Part shown: positions 6,450 to 8,987 of the stretch, piece after piece
How positions within the stretch are numbered: position 1 is the first letter of the stretch
Layout: each line of letters begins with the position of its first letter
DNA from: Fervidicoccus fontis Kam940
GTDB lineage: Archaea; Thermoproteota; Thermoprotei_A; Sulfolobales; Fervidicoccaceae
Reading direction: 5' to 3'
DNA length: 24,000 nucleotides
Assembly: GCF_000258425.1 (NCBI RefSeq)
Contig: NC_017461.1
Span: 874,949 to 898,948, forward strand
Position numbers and translations under genes: made by a program
The notes under the pieces: generated by a model
What the model was told of the DNA's origin: nothing
Databases searched by the model: none
What the model saw: the letters and a program-made list of their open reading frames with translations, nothing else

Positions 6450-8987
6450 ATGTCGTTTCTTCAAATAAGGAAAAAGAAGGGTATCGAAAATATATTAAAA
6501 AGCATTGGAAAAGAAGAGGTAGATTTCGGAGAAAGACCTCAATATTTGGAGGAATATGTAAAAAACGTTGAGAGCCAAATAGGAGAAAGACCACAGTTAG
6601 TTGAAAAGCTTAGCGGAGAAGCTAAAAAGCTGAGGGAATTCAATTTCATCTATCCGCTTGGAAACGGGATATTTGTCCACGTTACAAGCAGGCTGAAAAG
6701 CGAAAGCGGCTACAATAGATATATTGTAATTGAGCCGCCAAAGCCAGAAGCGAAGAAACTTTCGTTGATAGAGGAAGCTCTTGCATATCACATTTCAAGC
6801 GAGTTTACTCCCCAATCAAGCGAAGAAAAGAAGGCCATACTTTTGTATCTTCTAAATAAAATATTGGTTTCTAGAGGAAAAGCCAACGAAAAGGAAGAAT
6901 TAAAACTAGCGAAGAAGGGTAAAGTTCTAGTAAAGGAAGGCGAAGAAAACTATATAAAATACCACGTAGTTAGAGAGAAGGTCGGAGTCGGTATCCTAGA
7001 GCCCTTTCTCAGGGATCCGTATTTAGAAGACGTATCGGCGAGCGGTATAGGCAACATATTCGTTGTTCATAAGATCTTCGGATCGCTTGAGTCAAATATG
7101 GGATTTTTAGGAGATGAAGAGCTGGATGAGTTTATAATAAAACTTGGTGAGAAAATAGGAAAGCCGATAAGCTCGGCAAGGCCTGTAGTAGACGCGACTC
7201 TTCCAGATGGAAGCAGGATAAATATAGTTTTCGGTTCTGATGTGAGCTTAAGAGGTAGCAACTTCACAATAAGGAGGGTTTCAAAATCGCCAATAAGTGT
7301 GACACAGCTGGTTGATTGGGGAACTTTTGATGCGAGAATTGCAGCTTATGTTTGGATGATGTTAAGAGAGGGGATGAGCCTGTTCGTTTGCGGGGAGACA
7401 GCAAGCGGGAAGACCACCAGCCTAAACGCAATAAGCGTTTTCATAAAACCGAACGCTAAAATAGTCTCAATAGAGGATACAGCCGAAGTGGTATTTCCTC
7501 ATCCAAACTGGACTAGAGAGCTTACAAGAGATACGGGTCGACCTGAGAGTAGCGTAACCATGTTTGATCTTTTGAGGGCAGCGCTTAGACAGAGACCAAA
7601 CTACATAATAGTTGGAGAAATAAGAGGAGCGGAAGGAAACATCGCATTTCAAGCAATGCAGAGCGTCAGCAGAGACACTCCAATAATGATAAAAAGGGAA
7701 GGGGAAAATGCCTTGCTTACAAATATAGGAGATTTCGTTGATAGCTACTATAAAGAAGGCGAAGAGGGAAAAAAGTTCGTAAAGGACGTAAGTGTTCTTT
7801 CTCTTTCTCCTAATGGGAAAATTATTTTCTCTCCTATAGAATATTTGCTGAGACACAGAGCAGAGGAGATCTATACAATTATCCTTGAAAACGGTTCTAA
7901 CCTGAAAGTTACAGGCTCCCACAGCTTGTTTGTCTTCGACCCTTCAACGGTTCAAATTGTTCCGAAGCCAGTTTACAAGCTAAAAGAAGGAGATTATTTG
8001 ATAAAGGCTGAGCTGAAAAAAGAAAGACCATTGCTTAGAAAAAGCGGCGGAGAAATAAGAGGAGGTGTCCTTGTTTTCGAGAGGGACCTTGGAGTCAGCA
8101 GTAAAATTGAGGAACTTTGGAAGGAAAGCTTGAGAGTCAGAAGGATGAATTCTATTCGTCTATCGATTTTAAATAAGATATTTGAGAGATTTAACATCAT
8201 AGCTTCAGAGATCACGAGATTTGCTGGAGAAAACAGCTCAGAGCTTTATGATGTGGAAATTCCCGTTAATGGTATCATGAAGCTTTTCCTATCTTCGCTC
8301 TTTAACAAATTAAAAGGTCAGGCAAGGGAAAAAATGAAAAGGCTGTTTTACCTGCTCGAGAGCGATTTAGAGTTGGTTATGGTTAAAGAAATACGTAAAG
8401 AAAAATATGAGGGATTCGTATATGACGTTTCTGTTCCAGGTACTCAGCTATTTCTTGGCGGAGAAAGACCTTTTGCCCTCCATAACACAGGACATCCGGT
8501 TATGTCCACCTTCCACGCAGCAGACATTTCCAAACTTATTCAAAGGCTTACAAATCCGCCAATATCTATACCAAAAACGAATATGGATAACCTAAATATA
8601 GCGTGGTTCCAGAGCGCTGTTTATGTAAAAGGGTTTCCTGCCAGAAGAGTAATTAACATTAATGAAATCATAGGATACGATCCTGCTAGCGATGCAATTG
8701 CGACGATGCCTGTTTTCACCTGGGATCCTGTTGCTGATAGATTTCTGTTTTCAGGCAAGGGATCAAGCTATTTGCTTGAAGAAAAGATAGCTGTTATGAG
8801 AGGCATACCTAGAGGCAGGATAAATGAAATCTATGAAGAACTTGAGACCAGGAGAAGATATATTCAGGATCTTGTAGACCTTAAAGTTTTCGATTACGAT
8901 AGAGTCTTCAAGGCTGTGATATATGCAGAAAATGTTGGTATTGAAAAAGCTCTAAGAGATCTAGAAAGCGGAAGGATTTCGTTTTGA
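6450..8987 (+). CDS. arlI: ArlI (FlaI) archaellum assembly/motor ATPase, intein-containing precursor (845 aa; 570-aa exteins)
   Basis: Walker A [9 protein letters not shown], Walker B region [13 protein letters not shown] and His-box [11 protein letters not shown] of the GspE/VirB11/FlaI secretion-ATPase superfamily. The conserved core is interrupted by 825 in-frame nt. Confidence 0.95.
   Translation: [845 protein letters not shown]
7662..8486 (+). mobile_element. Intein (275 aa) within ArlI
   Basis: Junctions are [16 protein letters not shown]... and ...[19 protein letters not shown]. Block A has Ser1 and DTP. Block B is [11 protein letters not shown] (TxxH). Block F is GFVYDVSV. Block G is FALHN followed by Thr+1. 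Deleting it restores the contiguous [17 protein letters not shown] motif. Confidence 0.85.

Follow-up and report, generated by a model that had tools for sequence, protein, structure and literature searches.

Inteins in the COG0630 ATPase superfamily are already known at survey level, 21 of them having been counted in archaeal COG0630 'VirB11' ATPases from Crenarchaeota, Euryarchaeota and other Archaea (Novikova et al. 2016, Table 3, PMC4760082). The element considered here is a 275-residue insert in the archaellum motor ATPase ArlI (FlaI) of Fervidicoccus fontis Kam940, located at 7662..8486 (+) of the window, that is, of the whole 24,000-nucleotide stretch analysed (positions 874,949 to 898,948, forward strand, of contig NC_017461.1, assembly GCF_000258425.1), to which all coordinates below refer. 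It shares with the surveyed inteins the host superfamily (the VirB11/FlaI group) and the general rule of a position in conserved ATPase motifs; the survey gives counts only, filed under secretion/mobilome, and singles out neither the archaellum ATPase nor the His-box site. Literature searches found no published description of an intein in ArlI/FlaI or in Fervidicoccus; the matches that they gave concerned unrelated subjects (the IMPACT vector, an RNR intein, and a statement that T. tenax yielded no inteins). The word 'intein' is absent from a census of type IV pili systems in archaea published in 2016.

Three groups of structurally described inteins are relevant for comparison. The archaeal TFIIB mini-inteins (Methanocaldococcus jannaschii and M. 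vulcanius; PDB 5o9j and 5o9i) have a class-1 Hint fold without an endonuclease, as does the F. fontis intein, and share with it the block B (TGSHS) and block G (LHN) signatures; they differ in residing in TFIIB, which is not an ATPase, and in being 171-195 aa long, compared with 275 aa including a vestige of about 85 aa of an endonuclease in F. fontis. The intein of M. jannaschii KlbA (2jmz/2jnq) resembles the F. fontis intein in its VirB11/TadA-like secretion-superfamily ATPase host, in the lack of an endonuclease and in its Hint fold (Foldseek rank 22), but is 168 aa long. No alignment was obtained between the extein flanks in its PDB precursor and the ArlI junction, and the proteins retrieved included no KlbA orthologue. 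A preliminary description of the window had named KlbA as a precedent, and this precedent is real, 2jmz being the MJ0781 intein; its mechanism, however, is different, since KlbA is a class 2 intein with Ala1, in which Cys+1 directly attacks the N-terminal amide (PMC2807308), whereas the F. fontis intein has Ser1 and Thr+1. PI-PkoII (2cw7) and PI-PfuI (1dq3) have Hint halves homologous to those of the F. fontis intein, and their combination of Hint and LAGLIDADG domains is the architecture of its longer relatives, while F. fontis lacks both LAGLIDADG motifs.

A class-1 intein interrupts ArlI at the His-box

The host open reading frame (ORF) extends over 6450..8987 (+), stop included, and encodes a precursor of 845 aa (95.7 kDa) exactly matching AFH42917.1/WP_014558066.1 of F. 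fontis Kam940, 'archaeal flagellar protein FlaI'. The NCBIfam equivalog for the archaellum ATPase FlaI (NF058587) scored 659.7 bits against a cut-off of 550, Walker A, Walker B and His-box motifs are present, and the gene lies between arlH and arlJ. Graded by the NF058587 score, the protein is strongly indicated to be ArlI.

The insert consists of 275 in-frame codons, ends with FALHN, and separates Gln404 from the first His-box Thr. The N-extein (aa 1-404, 6450..7661, adjoining 7662 and ending in ...AFQAMQ) contains Walker A (GETASGKT, 7392-7415), the IVSIEDT segment (7461-7481) and Walker B (7602-7628), and the 166-aa C-extein (8487..8984) opens with the His-box (8487-8519), whose first residue is Thr+1 (8487-8489). 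The insertion point is therefore the first His-box residue, 14 residues past the Walker B Glu, which by alignment is E390 in F. fontis ArlI and E336 in FlaI of Sulfolobus acidocaldarius (SaFlaI; the E336A mutant is chain 4ihq). In silico excision of 7662-8486 leaves an ArlI of 570 aa and 64.2 kDa with an intact His-box. The boundaries, precursor length and remainder proposed in the preliminary description were thus correct to the base, and the landmarks that it had read from the letters (Ser1, block B, block F, FALHN and Thr+1, the last doubling as the first Thr of the His-box) were all recovered in place.

Orthologues are contiguous across this junction. In the alignment with SaFlaI (PDB 4ii7), residues 36-405 of the precursor correspond to SaFlaI residues 3-351 and residues 679-836 to SaFlaI residues 350-508; since 351 and 350 abut, the crystallised orthologue is contiguous exactly where F. 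fontis ArlI is interrupted. P0217, a protein from a Fervidicoccaceae metagenome-assembled genome (MAG), is 570 aa long, the in silico spliced length, and 63% identical to the spliced product, with the junction uninterrupted (QTGHPV contiguous). Most Desulfurococcales FlaI proteins from the homology search are likewise 560-590 aa long without an intein domain. An origin of the 275-aa segment as a native, lineage-specific domain of ArlI was ruled out by these orthologues, which lack it.

Profile hidden Markov models identified the insert as an intein with matches well beyond chance, all above their curated cut-offs: Pfam Intein_splicing (PF14890) with E=2.7e-19 and 69.9 bits (cut-off 35.8), TIGR01445 for the intein N-terminal region with E=1e-12 and 48.8 bits (cut-off 24.5), and TIGR01443 for the C-terminal region with 15.7-22 bits (cut-off 15.6). 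In addition, NCBIfam models of intein-bearing archaeal proteins (RFC, RNA polymerase A'', Pol II and Tes) matched through their inteins only. The best PDB sequence matches were the TFIIB mini-inteins 5o9i/5o9j (E=6.9e-18), followed by PI-PkoII and the Pho RadA intein; they cover intein residues 1-122 and 223-275, and the roughly 100 residues between align to nothing. The N-terminal part of the Hint domain (intein aa 1-120, 7662..8021) aligns to residues 4-122 of 5o9i, and the C-terminal part (intein aa ~206-275, 8277..8486) to residues 141-194 of 5o9i and 484-530 of PI-PkoII.

The residues of a class-1 intein are all present, as located by translation and alignment: the Ser1 nucleophile of block A (7662-7664), the TxxH of block B as Thr84-Gly-Ser-His87 (T-G-S-H, 7911-7922, with Thr84 at 7911-7913 and His87 at 7920-7922), Asp255 (8424-8426) in the VYDVSV of block F (8418-8435), and His274-Asn275 of block G (8481-8486) followed by Thr+1. 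The in-frame insertion into a conserved host motif that is contiguous in intein-less orthologues is a further class-1 feature. In an alignment of 16 related same-site inteins from the representative search, 33-40% identical to the F. fontis intein (hereafter A2), Ser1, Thr84, His87, Asp255 and Asn275 were invariant and His274 was at least 90% conserved. Retention of the catalytic residues at such low overall identity would be expected from purifying selection on the splicing chemistry.

A single-sequence AlphaFold model (predicted local distance difference test, pLDDT, 32) was superseded by a model based on A2, in which the mean pLDDT was 75, with values of 85-98 over residues 1-120 and 73-98 over residues ~210-275. 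The top 50 Foldseek matches of this model in the PDB were inteins or Hint domains only, led by the TFIIB mini-intein 5o9i (target-normalised TM-score 0.87), and the insert is predicted with high confidence to adopt the Hint (horseshoe beta) fold. The canonical intein with two hydroxyl nucleophiles (Ser1 and Thr+1) put forward in the preliminary description was therefore supported by profile, orthologue, alignment and structure-prediction tests, and the insert is confirmed as a genuine but ordinary class-1 intein in the archaellum motor ATPase ArlI.

Loss of the homing endonuclease

The central region of the intein (aa ~121-205, 8022..8276) is a helical stretch, modelled with low confidence (pLDDT below 50 over residues 121-204), that represents a vestigial homing endonuclease or linker. 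The Pfam scan gave no LAGLIDADG profile match in F. fontis ArlI, and in A2 both LAGLIDADG motif columns are deleted in the F. fontis intein relative to relatives of 479-483 aa. Same-site relatives of 444-493 aa have recognisable LAGLIDADG motifs, e.g., ...LDEDLAYVFGAYTAYGC... and ...FFEGLKADQRR..., and one long relative (P0041) has a Pfam LAGLIDADG_3 match. F. fontis residues ~121-205 align only with scattered pieces of these endonucleases, e.g., VLVFERDLG with LVLDEDLAY, including a helical segment before block F. The LAGLIDADG or HNH domain with catalytic motifs that marks a mobile intein is thus missing, and from these alignments we conclude that the F. fontis intein is a mini-intein that arose by endonuclease decay. 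Because both motifs are deleted it is probably immobile, being predicted to be unable to home. The preliminary description had recognised the core of the intein correctly and missed the lost endonuclease.

The intein is present, with identical Hint parts, in all seven full-length F. fontis-lineage sequences. When residues 403-845 were compared across all eight sequences of the lineage, only three positions varied (R530K, G539D/E and L547F), all of them in the central region. Guanine-cytosine content and skews of the intein match those of its flanks, which is consistent with a long-resident element; a comparison of the same base-composition measures between intein and flanks gave no support for recent horizontal acquisition.

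Same-site inteins in other archaea

An exhaustive HMMER search was performed with the full precursor as query against 1.84 billion cluster representatives, and the junctions of the top 150 FlaI-family representatives were mapped. An insertion at exactly the ArlI Q/TGH junction (the slash marking the splice point) was observed in 49 of the 150, a fraction inflated by the query itself containing the intein. The inserts at this junction are of at least three types. Type 1, to which the F. fontis intein belongs, has the form SV..DTP ... GG..P..LHN/TGH and is 238-493 aa long; type 2 starts with Cys and ends with Asp, e.g., CVKE...PLED/TGH, and has weak intein-profile matches; type 3 has the form SI.G.E ... 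GGFGGILLHN/[ST]GH. Judged from these alignments, the Q/TGH His-box junction of archaeal FlaI-family ATPases is a recurrent insertion site, with no fewer than three divergent lineages of inteins using it. Elsewhere in the family, inserts were located in the Walker A lysine region (~320-322), at ~343/344 and at further positions.

Type 2 inserts (P0014, P0016, P0018, P0019, P0020, P0021, P0024, P0027, P0029 and P0094, the last with Tyr as first residue) are 162-661 aa long, end with Asp and not Asn (e.g., ...PIPLED/TGH) and score below the Pfam cut-off for inteins; they are possibly divergent inteins whose C-terminal residue is Asp. Many FlaI-family homologues, including P0009, P0037, P0041, P0049, P0053, P0057 and P0060, carry two or three inserts (at extein positions ~320-322, ~343/344 and the His-box), with precursors of up to 2140 aa.

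The A2 profile was also scanned against one genome per GTDB species, giving 80 loci, all in MAGs, the F. fontis sequence itself not being among the matches. A type-1 intein at the identical site was found in 48 of these loci (48 species-level archaeal genomes), of which ~19 are flanked by ArlH and ArlJ homologues and so represent true arl operons, 15 with complete synteny (L001, L002, L004-L007, L009-L012, L014, L016, L017, L022 and L036) and 4 with partial synteny. The hosts of the arl-operon inteins are Desulfurococcales, Pyrodictiaceae and other Thermoprotei; their inteins span 229-459 aa, and a LAGLIDADG motif is kept in several of those of ~457 aa. At the other loci the host is a paralogous FlaI-like (pilus-type) ATPase, from Thermoproteota, Nitrososphaerota or DPANN archaea, or a different protein. 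A word-indexed protein search with the intein only gave no matches, not even the F. fontis protein, and neither did one with the KlbA intein, which reflects the limits of that search and not uniqueness of the intein.

The same-site MAG inteins (representatives P0009, P0011-P0013, P0015 and P0159) follow the F. fontis pattern, ...FQAMQ/SV..DTP ... LHN/TGHP..., with Ser1 and Thr+1 and ArlH-ArlI-ArlJ synteny; their homology extends over the full length, at 30-37% identity. All are known from metagenome-assembled genomes, whereas F. fontis provides the cultured example with a complete genome; some MAG hosts (L006, L009, P0009) also differ in having a second intein at Walker A. In L006 and L009, which are ArlI genes with arl synteny, the Walker A intein and the His-box intein occur together. 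Furthermore, in an ArlI-like gene of Desulfurococcales archaeon ex4484_204 (L053, ~4001-4740) stops were observed in the frame of the intein and C-extein, which reflect either a pseudogene or an assembly error.

Predicted splicing and alternative explanations

Taken together, it is highly probable that the insert is a decayed class-1 mini-intein that is constitutively spliced from ArlI. The arlI gene would be translated as the 95.7-kDa precursor, in which an N-to-O acyl shift at Ser1, helped by Thr84 and His87 of block B, would be followed by attack of the Thr+1 hydroxyl on the resulting ester to give a branched intermediate. Cyclisation of Asn275, helped by His274 and Asp255 of block F, would then free the 31.5-kDa intein, and an O-to-N shift would leave a Gln404-Thr peptide bond in the 570-aa (64.2-kDa) ArlI. 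Splicing is expected to proceed autocatalytically and, at the growth temperature of F. fontis, essentially constitutively, with the intein as a remnant of a selfish element without regulatory function. Its patchy presence in close relatives, together with endonuclease-bearing and endonuclease-less versions at one site, is the classic outcome of the homing cycle of a selfish element, and it would have persisted because ArlI would be destroyed if the intein were lost imprecisely from a catalytic motif. With Walker B and the His-box separated by the 275 intein residues, the unspliced precursor can reasonably be inferred to be inactive.

Several points weigh against this reading. Splicing to a ligated 570-aa ArlI is predicted from sequence, and constitutive splicing is our default assumption. 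The central region is kept in several short relatives and could have a structural role.

Among the alternatives, the one that survives best is that splicing is conditional, depending on temperature, pH or nutrient state, and gates archaellum assembly or rotation after translation. The insertion at the first residue of the His-box, 14 residues past the Walker B Glu, makes an inactive unspliced precursor plausible, and same-site inteins are kept in ~19 arl operons of different species; regulatory splicing in vivo has also been argued for an archaeal RadA intein (PMC11409957). Against it, no sensor is indicated in the sequence, the catalytic residues are the standard efficient set, the closest relatives do without the intein and its patchy presence is the product of a selfish mobile element, and transcription of the locus is already served by a dedicated ArnR-type regulator. 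Disulfide or redox traps are excluded by the composition of the intein, which has no cysteine; the whole 845-aa precursor has one (C314), so that no regulatory disulfide cysteine is available in the intein. No support was found for the control by temperature, redox or other splicing conditions that the preliminary description had offered, and redox control is implausible for this reason, both nucleophiles also being hydroxyls. Conditional splicing as a whole is accordingly considered unlikely, and it is just as doubtful that splicing of this cysteine-free intein is rate-limiting or condition-dependent in vivo, for example steeply temperature-dependent. If it were, archaellum assembly would be gated post-translationally in F. 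fontis and in the ~19 Desulfurococcales-type lineages that share the allele. This would make it the first motility system controlled by an intein, with an easy phenotype for asking whether inteins have been domesticated as regulators.

That the decayed intein is splicing-dead, with arlI functionally a pseudogene and the archaellum either non-working or served by another ATPase, is very improbable. The endonuclease part has clearly decayed, the related locus L053 has stops or frameshifts in an intein-bearing ArlI, and we infer the splicing of F. fontis ArlI itself; the ORF is nevertheless intact, all catalytic residues are conserved although the rest has diverged to 33-40% identity, both Hint halves are predicted with pLDDT above 90 and are identical across independent F. 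fontis samples, and the exteins and all neighbouring arl genes are intact. The suggestion that the segment is a native ArlI domain or a non-ligating autoprocessing domain of the Hint or bacterial intein-like type, to which hedgehog and bacterial intein-like folds lower in the Foldseek list might point, is effectively refuted by orthologues without the segment, by a canonical ligation-type block G with +1 nucleophile (HN/T) and by top sequence and fold matches that are bona fide inteins. Constitutive splicing of a decayed mini-intein is thus retained as the preferred explanation.

The archaellum locus and neighbouring genes

The archaellum locus around arlI is complete and of crenarchaeal type, with the order arnR-arlB-(X)-G-F-H-I-J, all genes being on the forward strand; the species description reportedly states that F. 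fontis bears an archaellum. Upstream of arlI lie an ArnR-like helix-turn-helix (HTH) regulator (1731-2582), the archaellin gene arlB (3087-3761), an unassigned ORF at the ArlX position (4035-4718), arlG (4732-5220), arlF (5222-5737) and arlH (5741-6445); arlJ (flaJ), encoding the membrane platform protein, follows directly downstream (9001..10641; NF004705, 535 bits against a cut-off of 400).

The 283-aa protein encoded at 1731-2582, upstream of the archaellin gene, has a TrmB-type HTH and is similar to ArnR, the archaellum activator of Sulfolobus (the NF041016 match, with E=1.6e-21, falls short of the equivalog cut-off); it probably regulates transcription of the F. fontis arl operon. The 227-aa ORF at 4035-4718 lies between arlB and arlG, where Sulfolobales have ArlX; it belongs to no Pfam or NCBIfam family and gave weak coiled-coil-like matches only.

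A 151-aa antisense ORF (7467-7922, minus strand) runs across the junction of N-extein and intein; nothing supports it as a gene, and it is in all likelihood spurious. Further downstream, a class II tRNA synthetase of the aspartyl/asparaginyl type (17620-19179, plus strand) gave a weak Rho_N-like (SAP-like) match within its catalytic domain (aa 334-372), which suggests that the enzyme carries a small inserted helical module.

Annotation and significance

Automated annotation of F. fontis arlI is inconsistent. In another F. fontis assembly, the RefSeq entry WP_457851873.1 (P0005, window 7656-8984) is a 443-aa 'hypothetical protein' whose start, Met403, lies two residues ahead of the intein; elsewhere the 845-aa protein is called TadA or a generic T2SS/T4P/T4SS ATPase, and the intein is mentioned in none of the names seen. 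The functional F. fontis ArlI should be read as the 570-aa spliced product and not as the annotated 845-aa 'T2SS/T4P/T4SS family ATPase'.

The F. fontis ArlI intein is a previously uncharacterised intein at a site that is a common intein target in this ATPase family, and it leaves the current understanding of inteins or archaella unchanged. As a thermophilic, cysteine-free intein with Ser and Thr nucleophiles, it could interest engineers wanting redox-insensitive splicing. Intein hosts are heavily biased towards replication and repair proteins, and for this reason a motility ATPase with swimming as its read-out would be a convenient test of selfish versus regulatory retention. For the family, ArlI in true arl operons emerges as a frequent host of inteins at the His-box site.

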